Positions 58,728-64,000 of a stretch of DNA of 64,000 nt are shown here, piece after piece. Position 1 is the stretch's first letter. The number at the start of each line of letters is the position of its first letter. Under the pieces are notes generated by a model. The model was not told where the DNA came from. It made no database searches and worked only from the letters and a program-made list of their open reading frames with translations. The stretch is from Nannocystis bainbridge (GTDB taxonomy: Bacteria > Myxococcota_A > Polyangia > Nannocystales > Nannocystaceae): NCBI RefSeq assembly GCF_028368995.1, contig NZ_JAQNDL010000001.1, positions 1,600,001-1,664,000 of the forward strand. Reading direction: 5' to 3'. The position numbers and the translations under genes are program-made.

Positions 58728-60011
58728 ATGCGAGACGAGAGTGAACGTGAGGACCACGGAAAGCTGTTCGTGACGAGCAGGTGTTGCGGCGCGGCGACGT
58801 GTCGCAACTTTGCGCCCGAACTCCTGGGCGAGGTGGCGACGGCGGGCGCCGTCCGTGACGGGCATCGGCTCGCTGTGTTGCCCGGGTCCTACGAGGATGG
58901 TGCCTTCACGGGGGTGCTGCGACAGCCGCACAGCGAGGAGGACCTGATCGCCGCGCGCACCGCAGTCGCGGCCTGCCCGGTCGGCGCCATCAAGCTCCTG
59001 CGTGGTGCCTCGCGGGTGCGCCGCGGCGCGTTGGGATCGCCCTGGCGCGGGTATCCCCGCCCCATCGAGGACAACGTGTGGATCGTCGGGCCTCCGTCCA
59101 TGAAGAACATCGGCGCCACGACTTACTTCATCGAGCGCGACGGCGGCGGCGTGTTGATCGACCCGCCACGACCGAGCGAGGCGCTGTTCCGCTGGCTCGC
59201 GGACCACGGCGGCGTCCGGTGGCTGTTCCTGACGCACCGCGACCACGCCCACCACCACGCCGAGATCGCCGCCCGCTTCCCCGATTGCCGCCGGCTCATC
59301 GGCGCAGCCGACGTGAACCTCCGCGAGAACAGCTTCCTCGCGACGACCGGCGACGTCGAGATCAAGCTCGGCAGCGAGCTTCGTCCGTGCACCCTCGAAG
59401 GACAGCCGCTCTCGGAAGCAGAGGCCCGACAGGCCGAACTCGTGGTGCTGCCTCAACCGGGACACACCGCAGGATCGATCTGCCTGCTGTACCGCGGTCG
59501 CTTCCTGTTCACCGGCGACCACCTCGCCTGGTCGCGCGTCCTCGGCCACATCGTGGCGTTCCGGGTGCAGTGCTGGGAGGACTGGGAGCGCCAGACCCAC
59601 TCCGTCCGTTATCTCGCCGCGGCCGCGGAGGCGGGCTGGCTGCGATTCACGTGGATCCTCCCCGGCCACGGAGAGTGGCAGCGTCTCCCGAGCGACGGCA
59701 GCGCGGCCGAGACAGCCGCGGCGCTGCGCCGCACGGTCGAGTGGATGGAGCGGCAGCCGAAGGGCCACATGCGGGCGATCCACTGGACCCCGTTCATCAT
59801 GGCCCGGTTGAAGCCGAAGAGCGCGCTGGGCCGCCTGGTGCGCGCCATCGGCCGCGGGAGCGACCTCTGGGTGTTGCCGCGTGACGTGTGGAGCTCGTTG
59901 CCCGCGCACGATCGTCGCCGCCTCGAAGCGGCGGTTCGCCGGCTTCGCGTGCTCGGGACCGTCGTGCTAGCAATCGCGGCGTTGATCGTGTGGTTCGTGG
60001 GTCGCAGATGA
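58728..60011 (+). CDS. Ferredoxin-fused MBL-fold metallo-hydrolase with C-terminal TM helix
   Basis: CCGAATCRNFAP...ACPVGAI; FLTHRDH, PGHTAGS, FTGDH, LPGHG. Confidence 0.85.
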   Translation: MRDESEREDHGKLFVTSRCCGAATCRNFAPELLGEVATAGAVRDGHRLAVLPGSYEDGAFTGVLRQPHSEEDLIAARTAVAACPVGAIKLLRGASRVRRGALGSPWRGYPRPIEDNVWIVGPPSMKNIGATTYFIERDGGGVLIDPPRPSEALFRWLADHGGVRWLFLTHRDHAHHHAEIAARFPDCRRLIGAADVNLRENSFLATTGDVEIKLGSELRPCTLEGQPLSEAEARQAELVVLPQPGHTAGSICLLYRGRFLFTGDHLAWSRVLGHIVAFRVQCWEDWERQTHSVRYLAAAAEAGWLRFTWILPGHGEWQRLPSDGSAAETAAALRRTVEWMERQPKGHMRAIHWTPFIMARLKPKSALGRLVRAIGRGSDLWVLPRDVWSSLPAHDRRRLEAAVRRLRVLGTVVLAIAALIVWFVGRR

Positions 60012-60080
60012 TTCGTGACCCACGACCCACGCGACTCAGAGCCACCTGCAATTCGGCCCGGCGAGCGACAGGCCGGCCGC

Positions 60081-60109
60081 CGACATGACCTGTCTTGAAG
60101 GTCAGGTCG
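60081..60109. repeat. Degenerate phased palindrome between convergent genes
   Basis: gacatgacctgtct-tgaa-ggtcaggtc; cores at 60089, 60103. Confidence 0.55.
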
Positions 60110-60139
60110 GCGACCTCGCCGACGCGGCAGTCGCCGCGC

Positions 60140-62347
60140 TCACCCGGTCGTCTCGGCCGAGGCCGCGACGACCTGTGCGCGTGCGTACTCGAGCACCATT
60201 GCGTTGTCGGTGCGCAGCGCCCACTCCGCGGCGAGCACCGGAGTCGCCGCCCAGCGCTCCGCGGCGTGATCGACCAGGCGCGGCCATGTCGCCCCGCCCG
60301 CCCGCACGAAGCGCTCGACCAACTGCTCGAGCGCCGGCCGCCCGAAGCAGCCGAGGAACATCGCCAGGTCGACCGAGGGATCGGTCACCCGCGCCTCCGT
60401 CCAGTCGAGGATCCCGACCACGCTCCCGTCTGTCTCGAGGAGCATGTGCCCCGGGTGCAGGTCCCCGTGCACCAGCGCGACGTGCTGCGGCCACATCGTA
60501 TCGTCGGCGAGCCAGCGCTGCCAGCGCTGCCACACCGCCTCCGAGGGCTGCAGCGCCTCGCGGGTCGCGTCCATCGACCGCGACAGCGCCGCGCGCACCT
60601 CTGCGATCGTCGTCGTCGGCGCGCCCGCGCGGCTCGCCGTCTCCGGCGCGATCGACTGCAACGCCGCCAGCGCCCGCGCGAACGACTCGAGGAACGCCTC
60701 GCAGGGCGCCGCTGGATCGAGGATGTTCCACCGCGGGCCCTCCGGCGTCACCGTCACTGCCGGCGTACCGGAGAGCCGCGGGTACGCGATCACGTCGGGT
60801 GCGTGCACCCGCCAGTCGGGCGCGGCCACCGGCAGGCGCGGGCGCACCAGCCGGAGCACCCGCGCCTCCACGTAGGTCGACGCCGTCACCTCGAGGCGAC
60901 GCGGCGTCCGCACGATCCACGGCGTGCCCGCCTCGTCGCGCGCGTGCACGACCAGGAAATCGAGCCCCATGCGATCGAAGTCGGCGTCCTCGGCCTGCAG
61001 CTCGAGCCCGTGCCGGCGGACGACCGCCAGCAGCTCCGACGGGCTGGTGATCGGCCGCACCGTCGACAGCAGGCCGCGCCAGCGCTCGAGCGCAGCCGGC
61101 TGCGCGCGCACCCGAAGCAGCGTCCCGGCCTCGGTGTAATTCTCCGCGAGCACGCGGGCGTGCGCGCGCACCTCCCCGAGCAGATGCCCGTCCGTGAAGG
61201 GCACCTCGAGCACATCGTCGACCTGTGTCGCGTCGAACGCCTCGATCAGCGCCGCGCGCAGGCGTGCGACGTCCGCGGGGTCGTGCGCGCAGACCTGCAG
61301 CGCCGCCGGCAGCTCCTCGGCCAGCGCCGCGCGCGTCGCCGCGTCGACCCGGTCGATCTTGTTGAAGATCACCAGCGAGGGCACCGCCGCCGCGCCGATC
61401 GTCGCCAGCGCCTCGCGGGTCACCGCGAGCTGCGTGCGCCACTGCAGATCCGACGCATCGACGACGACGAGCAGGAGCCCCGCGTCGCGCGCCTCGGCGA
61501 GGGTCGCGTGGAACGACGCGACCAGCTCGTGCGGCAATTCGCGGATGAAGCCGACCGTGTCCGACACCAGGATCCGCGGCGCCGTCTCCGGCGAGAGCGC
61601 CCGCACCGTGGTGTCGAGGGTCGCGAAGAGCCGGTCCTCGACCAGCACTTCACTCCCGGTCAGCGCGCGCATCAGCGACGACTTGCCAGCGTTGGTGTAG
61701 CCGACCAGCGCCGCGCGAGGCTGATCCTTGCGGCGCGCCCGCTGCGTCTCCTCGGCGGCGCGCAGGCCCGCGAGCTCGCGGCGCAGCCCGGCGATCCGTT
61801 CACGGAGCTCTCGCTTCTTCAGGGTCACGTTGCTGTGACCGCGCTCGCCCCGGCCGCCGCCGCCGCCCTCGCGCCCGCCGAGCGACCTGTCCTCGCGGAC
61901 ACGCGGGAGCGCGTGCGTGAGCGCGGCGATCTCGACCTCGAGCTGCGCGACCCGGGTCCGCGCGTGTCGCTCGAAGATCCGGAGGATCACGCTCGCGCGG
62001 TCGATCACCTCGACGCCCGCGAGCGCCTCCTCGAGGGCGCGGAGCTGGACGGGGCTGCGCGAGTCGCTGACGACGAGGAGGAGCTGCTCCTCCTCGGCGT
62101 CACCGCGGACCTCGGCGACGCGCGCCGCGAGCTCCGCGAGCTTGCCCTCGCCGATCGACGGATCGGCGGTCCGGTGGCGCTGGATCACCGAGGCGACGAC
62201 GCGGATCCCGAGCTGGGCGAGCAGGTTCTCGAGCTCGCTCATGGCCGCCTGCAAGGACGCTTCGGTGTCGCCGGGGAACTGCCGGCCGAGCACGACGGCC
62301 CGCGGCGTGGGGCGCACGGTGGATGGATGCCTGGAATGTTTGGTCAT
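60140..62347 (-). CDS. hflX: HflX GTPase fused to a macrolide 2'-phosphotransferase-like (Mph/APH) kinase
   Basis: aa 1 to ~425: IDRASVILRIFERHART, GYTNAGKS, FATLDT, DTVGFI, NKID. aa ~430-735: RHGL...GLDF...WIVRTPRR...EARVL...PDWR...HGDLHPGH...LDWTEA. Single frame; AGGAG SD 8 nt upstream. Confidence 0.92.
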   Translation of the reverse strand: MTKHSRHPSTVRPTPRAVVLGRQFPGDTEASLQAAMSELENLLAQLGIRVVASVIQRHRTADPSIGEGKLAELAARVAEVRGDAEEEQLLLVVSDSRSPVQLRALEEALAGVEVIDRASVILRIFERHARTRVAQLEVEIAALTHALPRVREDRSLGGREGGGGGRGERGHSNVTLKKRELRERIAGLRRELAGLRAAEETQRARRKDQPRAALVGYTNAGKSSLMRALTGSEVLVEDRLFATLDTTVRALSPETAPRILVSDTVGFIRELPHELVASFHATLAEARDAGLLLVVVDASDLQWRTQLAVTREALATIGAAAVPSLVIFNKIDRVDAATRAALAEELPAALQVCAHDPADVARLRAALIEAFDATQVDDVLEVPFTDGHLLGEVRAHARVLAENYTEAGTLLRVRAQPAALERWRGLLSTVRPITSPSELLAVVRRHGLELQAEDADFDRMGLDFLVVHARDEAGTPWIVRTPRRLEVTASTYVEARVLRLVRPRLPVAAPDWRVHAPDVIAYPRLSGTPAVTVTPEGPRWNILDPAAPCEAFLESFARALAALQSIAPETASRAGAPTTTIAEVRAALSRSMDATREALQPSEAVWQRWQRWLADDTMWPQHVALVHGDLHPGHMLLETDGSVVGILDWTEARVTDPSVDLAMFLGCFGRPALEQLVERFVRAGGATWPRLVDHAAERWAATPVLAAEWALRTDNAMVLEYARAQVVAASAETTG

Positions 62348-62608
62348 ACGAAGGACTCCTGCGCTCGCGGCCCGTAGGCCCGAGCGAGCTGGGAAGCCCG
62401 TGCGCGCGGCTCATGTGCCCGGCGCGGCGAGACGACGTCTCGACGCGACTGCTTCTTCCGGCGGCATGAGACGCCGCGCCCGGGCATTCCGTGGGACTGA
62501 AAGGACGGAGATGCGGGCACGACGCCGCAGCACTCGCACTCGCACCGTGCGCGCCGGATCTGCCGGAACACGCGGTCTGCGAGCGGGTACTGCGGAGCTC
62601 AGCGCAGG
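62348..62608 (-). promoter_or_regulatory. Structured 5' leader, putative translational attenuator
   Basis: 8-bp inverted repeat 62601-62608 (RLR codons) / 62358-62365 (overlaps SD); hairpins at 62525-62595 and 62417-62485; competing UACG hairpin at 62362-62386. Confidence 0.7.
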
Positions 62609-62625
62609 CGGATGAAGAAAACCAT
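62599..62625 (-). CDS. Leader peptide MVFFIRLR (macrolide-arrest R-L-R motif)
   Basis: ATG GTT TTC TTC ATC CGC CTG CGC TGA, about 250 nt upstream of hflX-mph. Confidence 0.75.
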   Translation of the reverse strand: MVFFIRLR

Positions 62626-62634
62626 GTCGCGGCC

Positions 62635-62664
62635 AGAATGCCACCACTCGCCCCCGCCGCGCAA
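62635..62664 (-). promoter_or_regulatory. Putative sigma70-like promoter for the leader/hflX-mph transcript
   Basis: TTGCGC-18-CATTCT; the -10 ends 9 nt before the leader ATG, implying near-leaderless initiation. Confidence 0.45.
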
Positions 62665-62743
62665 GCGCCTTGTGTCGTCCCCCTGTCCTTCGCGGCGAAA
62701 CACCGCGAACGCGCGGGCGGCCAGCGGGCCGAAGCAGAGAGCG

Positions 62744-63211
62744 TCACTCGATGTCGACTCGCAGGATCGTCGCCTGGCCGTCGCGCTCGATGGCGAAGCG
62801 GCTGGTGCCCGCGCTCCGCAGGTGCTCGAAGGCCGCCTCGACGTCGGCGACGTCGACCACGGGGGCGTCATCGACCGCCGTGAACAGGTCGCCGTTCTTG
62901 AGGCCGACGAGCCCTGGCAGGCTGCCCGCGCGCAGGCCGTAGACGAAGACGCCGCGAGGGACGCCGTCGTCGAGGAAGGGGATCAGCCGGGCCTGCTTTC
63001 GCACGGGCAGCGCGTTGACGGCGAGCGTGTCGACGAATCGTTGATCGAGGGTGCACCGGACGTCGCGGCAGCGCGCGAGCAGTGAGACATCGCCCATCTG
63101 GGCGGCGGCGTCAGCGGACGGATCGGCGCCGGAGATGAGGAAGAACAGCACGCCGGCGCAGGAGAGGCCGGCGCAGAACGAACCGAGAGCGGAGCGGAAG
63201 GAATTGCCCAT
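62744..63211 (-). CDS. Membrane-anchored GspC-like PDZ protein
   Basis: N-terminal TM; ARLIPFLDDGVPRGVFVYGLRAGSL...GLKNGDL...IERDG. Confidence 0.75.
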   Translation of the reverse strand: MGNSFRSALGSFCAGLSCAGVLFFLISGADPSADAAAQMGDVSLLARCRDVRCTLDQRFVDTLAVNALPVRKQARLIPFLDDGVPRGVFVYGLRAGSLPGLVGLKNGDLFTAVDDAPVVDVADVEAAFEHLRSAGTSRFAIERDGQATILRVDIE

Positions 63212-63375
63212 GCGGCGAGGCTTAGCAATTCCGGTGCCACCATCACGCAGGCCCATCTGCCGAGCGAATCGCCTGCAGACGCCGTGAGAAGTCGACATTT
63301 TGTCATGCGCACGCCGTCGCCCGCGACGAAGCGAGCTCGACGCCCCGCCGGCGAGCCGGCGGAGAGAGTCTTTCA

Positions 63376-63399
63376 GGACATGTCCCGAAGAACATGCCC
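63376..63399. repeat. 14-bp-phased CATG pair
   Basis: ggacatgtcc-cgaa-gaacatgccc; cores at 63379, 63393. Confidence 0.85.
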
Positions 63400-63423
63400 C
63401 GAGAGCCACCCGGCGAGCACGAT

Positions 63424-64000
63424 TCACTGCGCCGCGGCGGCGAAGCGCACCGCCACCAGGCTGTGCGGCGGCAGCGTCAATTGCACGCGCTCGCCGTCCT
63501 GCACGAACGGGGCCGGCTCGACGGCGACCGGCTGGTACATCGTATTGTGCTCGGCCGACGGCGGGGCCCACTGGCTGGCGGCGGTCGCGGTCCAGCCGGG
63601 CGGGAGGTCGACGGTGAACGTGTGGCTCTGCTGGAGGTCGCGGTGGAGGGCGACCAGGCTGCCGGTCTCGCTGGCGGGGTCGACGAAGGCGGCGGCGTGG
63701 ACCAGCGGGACCTTGATCGTCTCGTCTGGTCCGAAGGACATGTCCCTCTCGACCTGCTTGGTGAACTCGAGCGGGGCGGCGCGCTCGAGCAGGTGCTCGC
63801 CGACGAGGCGGGTGGCGACATAGCTGGCCATCGGCGCGGCGGTGGCCTCGGGGCCGGCGCGGAACGGGTTGTACCAGGGCTCGAGCAGCGGGTCGCGGTC
63901 CGGGCGCTCGAGGCTCTCGAACTCGAGGGCGGCTTGCTGGCAGGCCGCCTCGACGCCGAGCTGGGCGTAGAGCAGCAACATGCCGGCGACGCCGAGGCCG
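63424..64000 (-). CDS. C-terminal part of a probable glycoside hydrolase (alpha-L-arabinofuranosidase C-domain-like), truncated by the window edge
   Basis: Ends HNT...PVAVEP...VQLTLPPHSLVAVRF, typical of GH51-like beta-sandwich tails. Confidence 0.6.
   Translation of the reverse strand, partial: GLGVAGMLLLYAQLGVEAACQQAALEFESLERPDRDPLLEPWYNPFRAGPEATAAPMASYVATRLVGEHLLERAAPLEFTKQVERDMSFGPDETIKVPLVHAAAFVDPASETGSLVALHRDLQQSHTFTVDLPPGWTATAASQWAPPSAEHNTMYQPVAVEPAPFVQDGERVQLTLPPHSLVAVRFAAAAQ

Follow-up and report, generated by a model that had tools for sequence, protein, structure and literature searches.

How is a gene that joins a ribosome-splitting GTPase to a macrolide kinase regulated? The question is raised by hflX-mph of Nannocystis bainbridge, which lies in the 64,000-nucleotide (nt) stretch of DNA analysed here (the window; contig NZ_JAQNDL010000001.1, positions 1,600,001 to 1,664,000). 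An earlier interpretation of this stretch, made from the letters alone (the sequence-only reading), had noticed a hidden open reading frame (ORF) encoding MVFFIRLR upstream of the gene, and had proposed that the gene is antibiotic-inducible through ribosome stalling on this peptide. The comparative evidence presented below makes it likely that the eight-codon ORF functions as a regulatory leader peptide, belongs to the R-L-R (+x+) class of macrolide-arrest peptides, which includes MefAL, MsrAL and ErmDL, and drives attenuation. To the extent that sequence can show it, this supports the sequence-only reading. From the behaviour of these relatives we infer that stalling at R-L-R would be drug-dependent and that hflX-mph would be induced by macrolides.

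Reading of the minus strand recovers the upstream ORF (uORF), ATGGTTTTCTTCATCCGCCTGCGCTGA, exactly where it had been placed, and counting gives 251 nt between its stop and the hflX-mph ATG, on the same strand, close to the 250 nt estimated before. The R6-L7-R8 motif of the peptide directly abuts the stop codon. The sequence-only reading had named R-x-R as a macrolide arrest motif, citing ErmDL and the leader of Listeria hflXr, and this is documented in the literature (PMC8298421, PMC6310831, PMC4335068; these and the other sources cited are drawn on here in excerpt). In the whole genome (11 Mb, 71.5% G+C, both strands) there are 26,895 ATG-initiated ORFs of 3-15 amino acids (aa). A total of 863 of these end in [RK]x[RK], 28 in RLR and only 2 in IRLR, and both of the latter sit upstream of Mph-domain genes. 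A 90-aa frame that encloses the uORF was rejected as the relevant unit; its 5' part overlaps the neighbouring gene and is unconserved. Orthologue L004 has an in-frame stop just 18 nt ahead of the uORF start codon, and thus the 8-codon ORF, rather than the 90-aa frame, is the conserved unit.

Orthologues of hflX-mph at 88-90% identity are found in five other Nannocystis genomes, and all five keep an 8-codon ORF. The peptides are MAMFIRLR, MFAFIRLR (three times) and MVAFIRLR, following the pattern M-x-x-F-I-R-L-R-stop. When the six Nannocystis fusion loci are aligned, the upstream regions are unrelated until about 50 nt before the uORF and conserved from there through to the gene. Variation along the leader peaks at codons 2-3; F-I-R-L-R-stop is the same throughout, with a synonymous ATC/ATT change, and R-L-R occupies codons 6-8 in 6/6 loci. 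Fusions of HflX to Mph also occur outside the genus, as full-length proteins of 47-66% identity in five further Myxococcota genomes (L123-L127), namely Chondromyces apiculatus (66%), two Myxococcales/Lujinxingiaceae metagenome-assembled genomes (MAGs), a Vulgatibacter MAG and Lujinxingia vulgaris (47%). A uORF precedes the fusion in four of these five genomes (MVKSIRLR, MFLFMRFR, MIDFCRLR and MIDCFHIRLR).

The N. bainbridge genome contains a second leader ORF of this kind, MFAFIRLR, on contig C5 (58167..58141, minus strand; locus L036). It lies 182 nt upstream of a standalone mph paralogue, which encodes 323 aa and is 62% identical to the kinase domain of the fusion. This leader has the same TTGCGC promoter-like block as that of hflX-mph; it is shorter and diverged, with GGAGGACCGCGCGC as its counterpart of the pseudo-Shine-Dalgarno block described below. 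Four orthologues of the standalone gene are preceded by MVASIRFR (three times) or MVASVRLR, with synonymous TCC/TCG and CGC/CGT changes.

A wider survey was made by scanning an alignment of the Mph domain against one genome per species. This yielded 80 loci, of which 51 are of Myxococcota type (L043-L089, L091, L095, L112 and L121) and 29 come from other phyla; ten of the 51 are HflX-Mph fusions whose upstream region lies beyond the 1,200-nt flank (five from Nannocystis and five that were re-fetched). A uORF of 7-10 codons ending in R-[L/F/I/K]-R-stop is present at 45/51 Myxococcota-type mph loci and at 13/29 loci from other phyla. Within the Myxococcota-type set, uORFs of 7-8 codons ending in R-[L/F/K]-R-stop start with ATG at 16 loci and with GTG at 20, and five loci have no uORF, two of these having just 102-251 nt of upstream sequence. 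The 13 other carriers belong to Paenibacillus, Cohnella, Brevibacillus, two Bacillota MAGs and a Sericytochromatia MAG, with leaders such as MVIHYIRLR, MCIHFMRLR, MRGIAFMRLR, MGIASMRLR and MSTPSMRLR. The conservation upstream of homologues that the sequence-only reading had named as a check is therefore seen in Nannocystis, in most of the distant fusions, and at standalone mph genes of both Myxococcota and Firmicutes. Most Sorangium/Polyangium-type mph loci (L056-L075, L079-L085) have a GTG-started leader ORF, e.g., MAFSRLR, MHSIRFR, MQAIRFR or MAFIRLR (GTG read as formylmethionine), and R-F-R replaces R-L-R in about half of them.

The 60 uORFs, when pooled, comprise 46 different DNA sequences, which encode 38 peptides 7-10 residues long. 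Among the 46, the arginine at position -3 is written with 5 codons, that at -1 with 6, and leucine with 6; 35 end in TGA and 11 in TAA. Two further positions, which lie outside the search rule, are also conserved: position -4 is I in 28, M in 9 and V in 4, and position -5 is F in 20, S in 18 and Y in 4. The codon diversity, the constant length, the stop immediately after the motif and the preferences at -4 and -5 argue for selection on the uORF as a peptide rather than as a DNA or RNA motif.

How translation of the leader ORF would start is suggested by the sequence in front of it. Inspection reveals no Shine-Dalgarno (SD) site upstream of the ORF, nor do the other Myxococcota versions have one, and the conserved region begins instead with a promoter-like block (Table 1). 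The -10-like element is kept as TG[GT]CAT[TC]CT among the Nannocystis orthologues, and 25 of 27 Myxococcota uORFs have the TTG of a -35-like hexamer beginning 34-40 nt before their ATG, vs 5.1% of 186,647 ATGs in the genome. The usual distance from a -10 element to the transcription start is 6-8 nt; with 9 nt between the -10-like element and the ATG, the predicted 5' untranslated region would be about 2-4 nt. The suggestion of the sequence-only reading that the uORF is nearly leaderless fits this arrangement, i.e. the lack of an SD together with a conserved TTGCGC-N18-(TGG)CATTCT that ends 9 nt before the ATG. Conservation and spacing alike are thus consistent with (near-)leaderless translation of the Myxococcota leader ORFs. 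Firmicute versions differ in that GGAGG is found 7-9 nt upstream of the uORF. When three Firmicute leaders were scanned with a consensus, promoter-like sites were called upstream of the uORF in two (L102 and L097), 45-75 nt further up.

An unfused hflX paralogue in the same genome (contig C3, about 1235500-1236950, plus strand; L037) is about 51% identical to the GTPase part of the fusion. It is preceded by TTGCCG-N17-CAGTCT-N10-ATG with no SD and looks leaderless as well. Because it shows the same layout, (near-)leaderless starts may be ordinary in the Nannocystis host. The N-terminal 70 or so residues of this paralogue are matched separately from the rest, and TGA stops fall inside the match in some orthologues. 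No uORF of the R-L-R kind was found upstream of this gene or its five orthologues (L037-L042). A genome-wide search for leaders with the same promoter spacing returned 53 candidates, of which only the two mph loci are convincing. One of the candidates set aside, MRSMRLR (GTG start, 7 codons, contig C1, about 4477499, plus strand), has a TTG at the same spacing and lies 287 nt before a dCTP-deaminase-like ORF; it is probably a chance occurrence.

The RNA between the uORF and the gene appears to be highly structured. A 311-nt stretch of the leader folds at -154.7 kcal/mol (z = -3.58), and a consensus structure computed with RNAalifold from nine fusion leaders (six Nannocystis, Chondromyces and two MAGs) has 90.4% of alignment cells paired. 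Its three elements are a hairpin P1, a central P2 domain and a terminal hairpin. A ribosome stalled at codon 7 could reach the outer 5' strand of P1, and the motif that follows the uORF stop, GC(U/C)CGGCAGC, is kept in different genera. Six pairs in the P1 helices (2-5) and four in the P2 helices (7-10) have changed on both sides. In the structure as a whole there are 15 such pairs, vs 5.2 +/- 1.8 in shuffled alignments (0/500 reach 15) and 3-8 when the partners are slid.

The terminal hairpin is where the gene would be controlled, and its SD and anti-SD strands covary (AGGAG/CUUCC, GGAGG/UCUCC and GAAGG/CCUUC). Burial of the SD was assessed from local folds of the last 80 nt of 16 leaders, which represent both paralogue families and ten genera or MAGs. 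In 15/16 leaders at least 3 of 4 SD bases are paired, vs 53% of 400 SD-bearing starts of long ORFs in the same genome. The mean probability of the SD being unpaired is 0.14 in the leaders and 0.42 in the controls (Mann-Whitney p = 6.5e-6, a value that overstates independence since the leaders are kin). By these models, the SD of hflX-mph is sequestered in a leader hairpin, as in a translational attenuator of the ermC type.

The segment of the leader that is most conserved lies further upstream and resembles the SD itself (the pseudo-SD block). Of the possible upstream partners of the extended anti-SD strand, this block is the strongest in 12/16 leaders (-28.3 kcal/mol in the window), and predicted energies are -23 to -37 kcal/mol for pseudo-SD:anti-SD vs -9 to -23 for SD:anti-SD. 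The two strands change together in a lineage-specific manner, giving the compensating pairs GGAAGGCCC:GGGCCUUCC, GGAAGGCCCGCGCGCG:CGCGCGCGGGUCUUCC, GGAGGUUCGUGCGCG:CGCGCGCCGAACCUCC and GGAGGACCGCGCGC:GCGCGGCCUCCU. In GC-rich RNA the duplex energies are individually no better than those of shuffles (z -0.0 to -1.4), two Labilithrix leaders excepted (z -3.7 and -4.9). The case for this helix therefore comes from its recurrence at a homologous position and from the compensating sequences, not from single duplex energies. A MAFFT alignment of 12 diverse leaders misplaces the anti-SD block by a few columns. As modelled, the leader resembles a classical attenuator in its 3' half, where a decoy strand is held either in its own hairpin (SD buried) or on the anti-SD strand (SD free).

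Table 1. Elements of the hflX-mph locus, with coordinates as positions in the window.
Feature	Position	Strand	Description
-35-like hexamer	62659..62664	-	TTGCGC; onset of sequence conservation in the alignment of six Nannocystis loci
Extended -10-like element	62635..62643	-	TGG-CATTCT; 18-nt spacer from the -35-like hexamer; ends 9 nt before the uORF ATG
Leader ORF	62599..62625	-	ATGGTTTTCTTCATCCGCCTGCGCTGA; MVFFIRLR, 8 codons plus TGA
Hairpin P1	62525..62595	-	From RNAalifold; begins 4 nt past the uORF stop; outer 5' strand CCGCAGUA
Central P2 domain	62398..62522	-	Inner hairpin UCCGU...ACGGA plus long-range helices s2:s3 and s1:s4
Pseudo-SD block	62473..62490	-	GGAAUGCCCGGGCGCGGC; most conserved leader segment; candidate anti-sequestor; pseudo-SD followed by CCCGGGCGCGG
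Anti-SD strand	62391..62409	-	CCGCGCGCACGGGCUUCCC; partner of the real SD (OFF) or of the pseudo-SD block (proposed ON)
Terminal hairpin	62353..62399	-	Buries the hflX-mph SD, AGGAG (62360..62356), in its 3' strand
hflX-mph	60140..62347	-	735 aa; HflX GTPase (residues ~1-430) fused to Mph-type macrolide 2'-phosphotransferase (~434-735)
Upstream neighbour ORF	62744..63211	-	No Pfam match
Convergent downstream ORF	58728..60011	+	4Fe-4S ferredoxin domain and metallo-beta-lactamase fold

These elements can be combined in the following model. Transcription would begin a few bases before the ATG, from the promoter-like block, and the uORF would be read as a (near-)leaderless message. When no drug is present the ribosome would make the octapeptide, terminate at UGA and depart, and the 250-nt leader would then fold into P1, the central domain and the SD-burying terminal hairpin (OFF). 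When a macrolide or ketolide occupies the exit tunnel, the peptidyl-(..R-L)-tRNA in the P site would be unable to accept Arg-tRNA. On ErmDL the ribosome halts when Leu7 has reached the P site and Arg8 the A site (PMC8298421), and by analogy the codons held here would be CUG (Leu7) in the former and CGC (Arg8) in the latter. The stalled ribosome would sit over the entire uORF, start codon included, and over about 8 nt beyond the stop, which takes in the outer 5' strand of P1. In the refolded leader the pseudo-SD block would take the anti-SD strand, the real SD would be freed and HflX-Mph would be made (ON). The transcription start and the relay from P1 to the SD hairpin are the steps of this model that we infer.

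Some support for the model comes from homologous leaders that are short. In these the uORF is predicted to pair directly with the ribosome-binding site (RBS) region of the gene, e.g., AUGACGG...CCGUCAUG, and blocking the ribosome footprint raises the predicted accessibility of the SD in 5/5 short Myxococcota leaders (from 0.17-0.42 to 0.37-0.54) and in 9/12 Firmicute-type leaders. Direct uORF:RBS pairing was rejected for the long Nannocystis leaders; the leader in the window stands out (-23.5 vs a best of -21.2 among 36 other windows) and those of its orthologues do not.

Several results weigh against the model. When the first 34 nt of the long leaders are blocked, the probability of the SD being unpaired goes from 0.31 to 0.30 in the window and stays at 0.18 in most orthologues. 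Folds of the nascent transcript up to the anti-SD strand give inconsistent partners across leaders, and the best partner of the ribosome-covered region varies by lineage between the P1 3' strand, the pseudo-SD, the anti-SD block and the terminal hairpin. A consensus sigma-70 scan of 62200-62900 called no promoter. The fusion locus L126, from a Lujinxingiaceae MAG, has no detectable uORF upstream. The R-x-R ending was itself the search criterion, and its frequency of 46/46 among the pooled uORFs is thus given by construction. The loci are related by descent, and both the counts and the Mann-Whitney p overstate their independence. Finally, a search of sequencing runs returned metagenome contigs only, with at least half of the sampled words present in two runs and about 6% in runs labelled as RNA. 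As regards the relay, it would either work kinetically during transcription, or part of the output would be transcriptional, through Rho or mRNA stability. Within the overall model, the odds for and against translational control seem to us about balanced.

The alternative that survives best keeps the same sensor and changes the output, such that, when the drug is absent, most transcripts would end prematurely within the leader, either at a hairpin or through Rho as in tnaC, or mRNA stability would be affected. The R-L-R leaders of Listeria hflXr and mef(E) are reported to work by transcription attenuation, and mef(E)L also touches mRNA stability; in our locus, the stretch just past the uORF stop is C-rich and conserved, and the constrained folding left the SD of the long leader closed. 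Contigs of about 237 nt that contain only the leader (62358-62594 and 62341-62579) were found in two RNA libraries of one study and would be a very weak hint in the same direction. They derive from root-metagenome libraries labelled RNA, belong to a relative that is about 92% alike, have a depth of about 3 and extend only from the uORF to the gene start. As an indication of an abundant leader transcript they are at most a hint, since such contigs cannot reveal RNA ends, and comparison of four sequencing runs with the leader allowed no RNA starts, ends or strand to be derived.

Other observations speak against this alternative. A scan of 62200-62900 called no hairpin-plus-U-tract terminator, the terminal hairpin being followed by GUCCUUCGUAUG, and none was called in three Firmicute leaders; a hairpin with a U-rich run can be seen by eye and in minimum free energy folds of Firmicute homologues, without support from the scan. 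By these scans the leader lacks the intrinsic terminator of a transcription attenuator of the rli80/hflXr or mef(E) type. Moreover, the terminal hairpin includes the SD with a covarying anti-SD, which would be needless in a pure terminator. Transcriptional and translational outputs are not mutually exclusive. We regard an output at the level of transcription or stability as possible, and clearly less probable than the attenuator role of the peptide as such.

It is unlikely, on present evidence, that the uORF is regulatory and senses some other signal, be it a different binder of the exit tunnel or peptidyl transferase centre, released by neighbours or by myxobacteria, or the supply of Arg-tRNA. 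The +x+ motif is known to respond to ketolides too, lincomycin as well as erythromycin induces Listeria hflXr, and two of the eight codons here specify arginine. The regulated genes, however, encode an Mph-type macrolide kinase in every case, either on its own or joined to HflX. Genes of amino-acid biosynthesis are not linked to the leaders, and two Arg codons are few compared with classical amino-acid attenuators.

A still weaker case can be made for an RNA or DNA element, e.g., a structured RNA or the operator of an MphR-like repressor, in which the reading frame would be incidental. Nucleotide conservation is high along the whole Nannocystis leader, and within the genus coding and non-coding constraint are inseparable. 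Across genera, by contrast, the DNA varies and the peptide stays, with 5-6 Arg codons, 6 Leu codons and two stops in use and with the frame and a length of 7-10 residues kept. Firmicute versions share the peptide and not the leader RNA. No Rfam family matches either, a scan of 60000-64000 having given five matches with E of at least 0.06, all below gathering scores. We therefore consider such an element very improbable. A chance ORF without function, which the abundance of CGC and CTG codons in high-GC DNA and the 863 short ORFs ending in +x+ might suggest, is effectively refuted by the scarcity of RLR and IRLR endings, by the position of both IRLR endings before Mph genes, and by occurrence at homologous loci far above the roughly 5e-4 expected per 400-nt region.

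Among known systems, the mef and msr(A) leaders, of 8 residues, are those that the peptide in question most resembles in form. Mef(E)L/Mef(A)L (MTASMRLR) and Msr(A)L (MTASMRLK) likewise have eight codons with R-L-R/K at codons 6-8 followed by the stop, and a long structured leader (about 330 nt in their case) with a macrolide resistance gene downstream (PMC4335068). Peptides even more similar to these, MTASIRLR and MTAAIRLR, are found among the homologues surveyed here. The Mef/Msr leaders differ in having a consensus AGGAGG RBS 34 nt into the transcript and a Rho-independent terminator (PMC4335068), whereas the Nannocystis leader has no SD, a promoter-like block at the ATG, no U-tract terminator and a sequestered downstream SD. 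The former belong to Gram-positive efflux/ABC-F operons, the latter to a Gram-negative myxobacterium in which the Mph kinase is fused to HflX.

ErmDL (MTHSMRLRFPTLNQ), the leader of erm(D)/erm(K), shares the core M-x-x-x-[M/I]-R-L-R, and the minimal inducing ErmDL/ErmKL peptide, MTH[S/A]MRLR, also has 8 residues (PMC4335068). By contrast, ErmDL is longer by 6 codons, has an SD and controls a methyltransferase. The leader of Listeria monocytogenes hflXr (lmo0762), rli80, contains a 14-aa RLR ORF and, as in our locus, this small ORF lies upstream of a resistance GTPase of the HflX family; its ribosome-dependent attenuation was shown with start-codon and structure mutants (PMC6310831). Rli80 differs in the length of its peptide and in having an intrinsic terminator, and HflX here is fused to Mph; the two leaders were compared by motif only.

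Attenuators of the ermC type share with the Nannocystis leader a leader peptide, alternative helices, an SD in the last hairpin and a decoy strand for the anti-SD strand. ErmCL differs in its IFVI motif and compact 4-segment leader, whereas here a hairpin of about 70 nt and a domain of about 125 nt separate the sensor from the SD hairpin. A parallel for the (near-)leaderless layout is offered by the mycobacterial polycysteine ORFs, which are leaderless short ORFs at the mRNA 5' end that act as ribosome-dependent attenuators; these sense cysteine supply rather than an antibiotic, and they belong to a different phylum (bioRxiv 10.1101/834739).

In the Creative Commons-licensed PubMed Central and bioRxiv literature we found no description of leader peptides for mph genes or HflX-Mph fusions, only general reviews, nor of the leaderless layout or the link to mph genes. 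An R-L-R leader before an inducible macrolide resistance gene is what a specialist would expect, and the surprise is moderate. What is added is the breadth of the family, which extends over chromosomal mph genes of two phyla, and the apparently leaderless sensor. A bolder reading, which we put forward tentatively and hold to be less likely than not as a whole, is that the leader is a leaderless and possibly 'one-shot' sensor. The mRNA 5' end would be the AUG of the arrest peptide itself, each transcript would be sampled co-transcriptionally by one 70S ribosome, and the readout would be a three-way switch of pseudo-SD, anti-SD and SD. Such a module would have controlled, from its ancestor on, a large clade of chromosomal Mph genes common to Myxococcota and Firmicutes, and would have been retained when the kinase was fused to HflX.

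If the leader acts as proposed, its regulation would provide an independent argument that HflX-Mph and standalone Mph proteins of soil myxobacteria handle ribosome inhibitors of the macrolide type. R-L-R control, described for Gram-positive erm, msr, mef and hflXr genes, would reach macrolide kinases as well, along with a Gram-negative phylum whose sensor ORF starts without an SD. On the bolder reading, removal of the drug from the ribosome and its inactivation might be physically coupled and co-induced in the fusion. The pattern x-[F/S]-[I/M]-R-[L/F]-R-stop, 80-450 nt upstream of a gene, would offer an inexpensive way to annotate environmental mph genes as inducible. The natural variants (R-F-R, R-I-R and R-K-R, in peptides of 7 to 10 residues) would form a ready mutational series for the study of +x+ arrest.

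HflX-Mph contains the Pfam domains GTP-bdg_N, GTP-bdg_M, MMR_HSR1 and APH. It scores 304.6 bits against the NCBIfam HflX model TIGR03156 (cut-off 216.75), and 159-213 bits over the full length of eight NCBIfam Mph family models, all under the allele-level cut-offs. Other NCBIfam APH models reach about 30 bits only, far below the scores of the Mph models. The closest solved structure for the C-terminal part is MPH(2')-I (5igh, 1.4e-62), and those for the N-terminal part are mycobacterial HflX (8vkw, 3e-66), Listeria HflXr (8a57, 2.6e-57) and E. coli HflX (5ady, 6e-51). Sequence comparison places the HflX part nearer to mycobacterial HflX, at 227.6 bits, than to Listeria HflXr, at 198.3 bits.

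The genes flanking hflX-mph and its leader vary among the orthologous loci, those in the window being listed in Table 1. The unit of promoter-like block, uORF, leader and gene thus behaves as a self-contained, monocistronic module.

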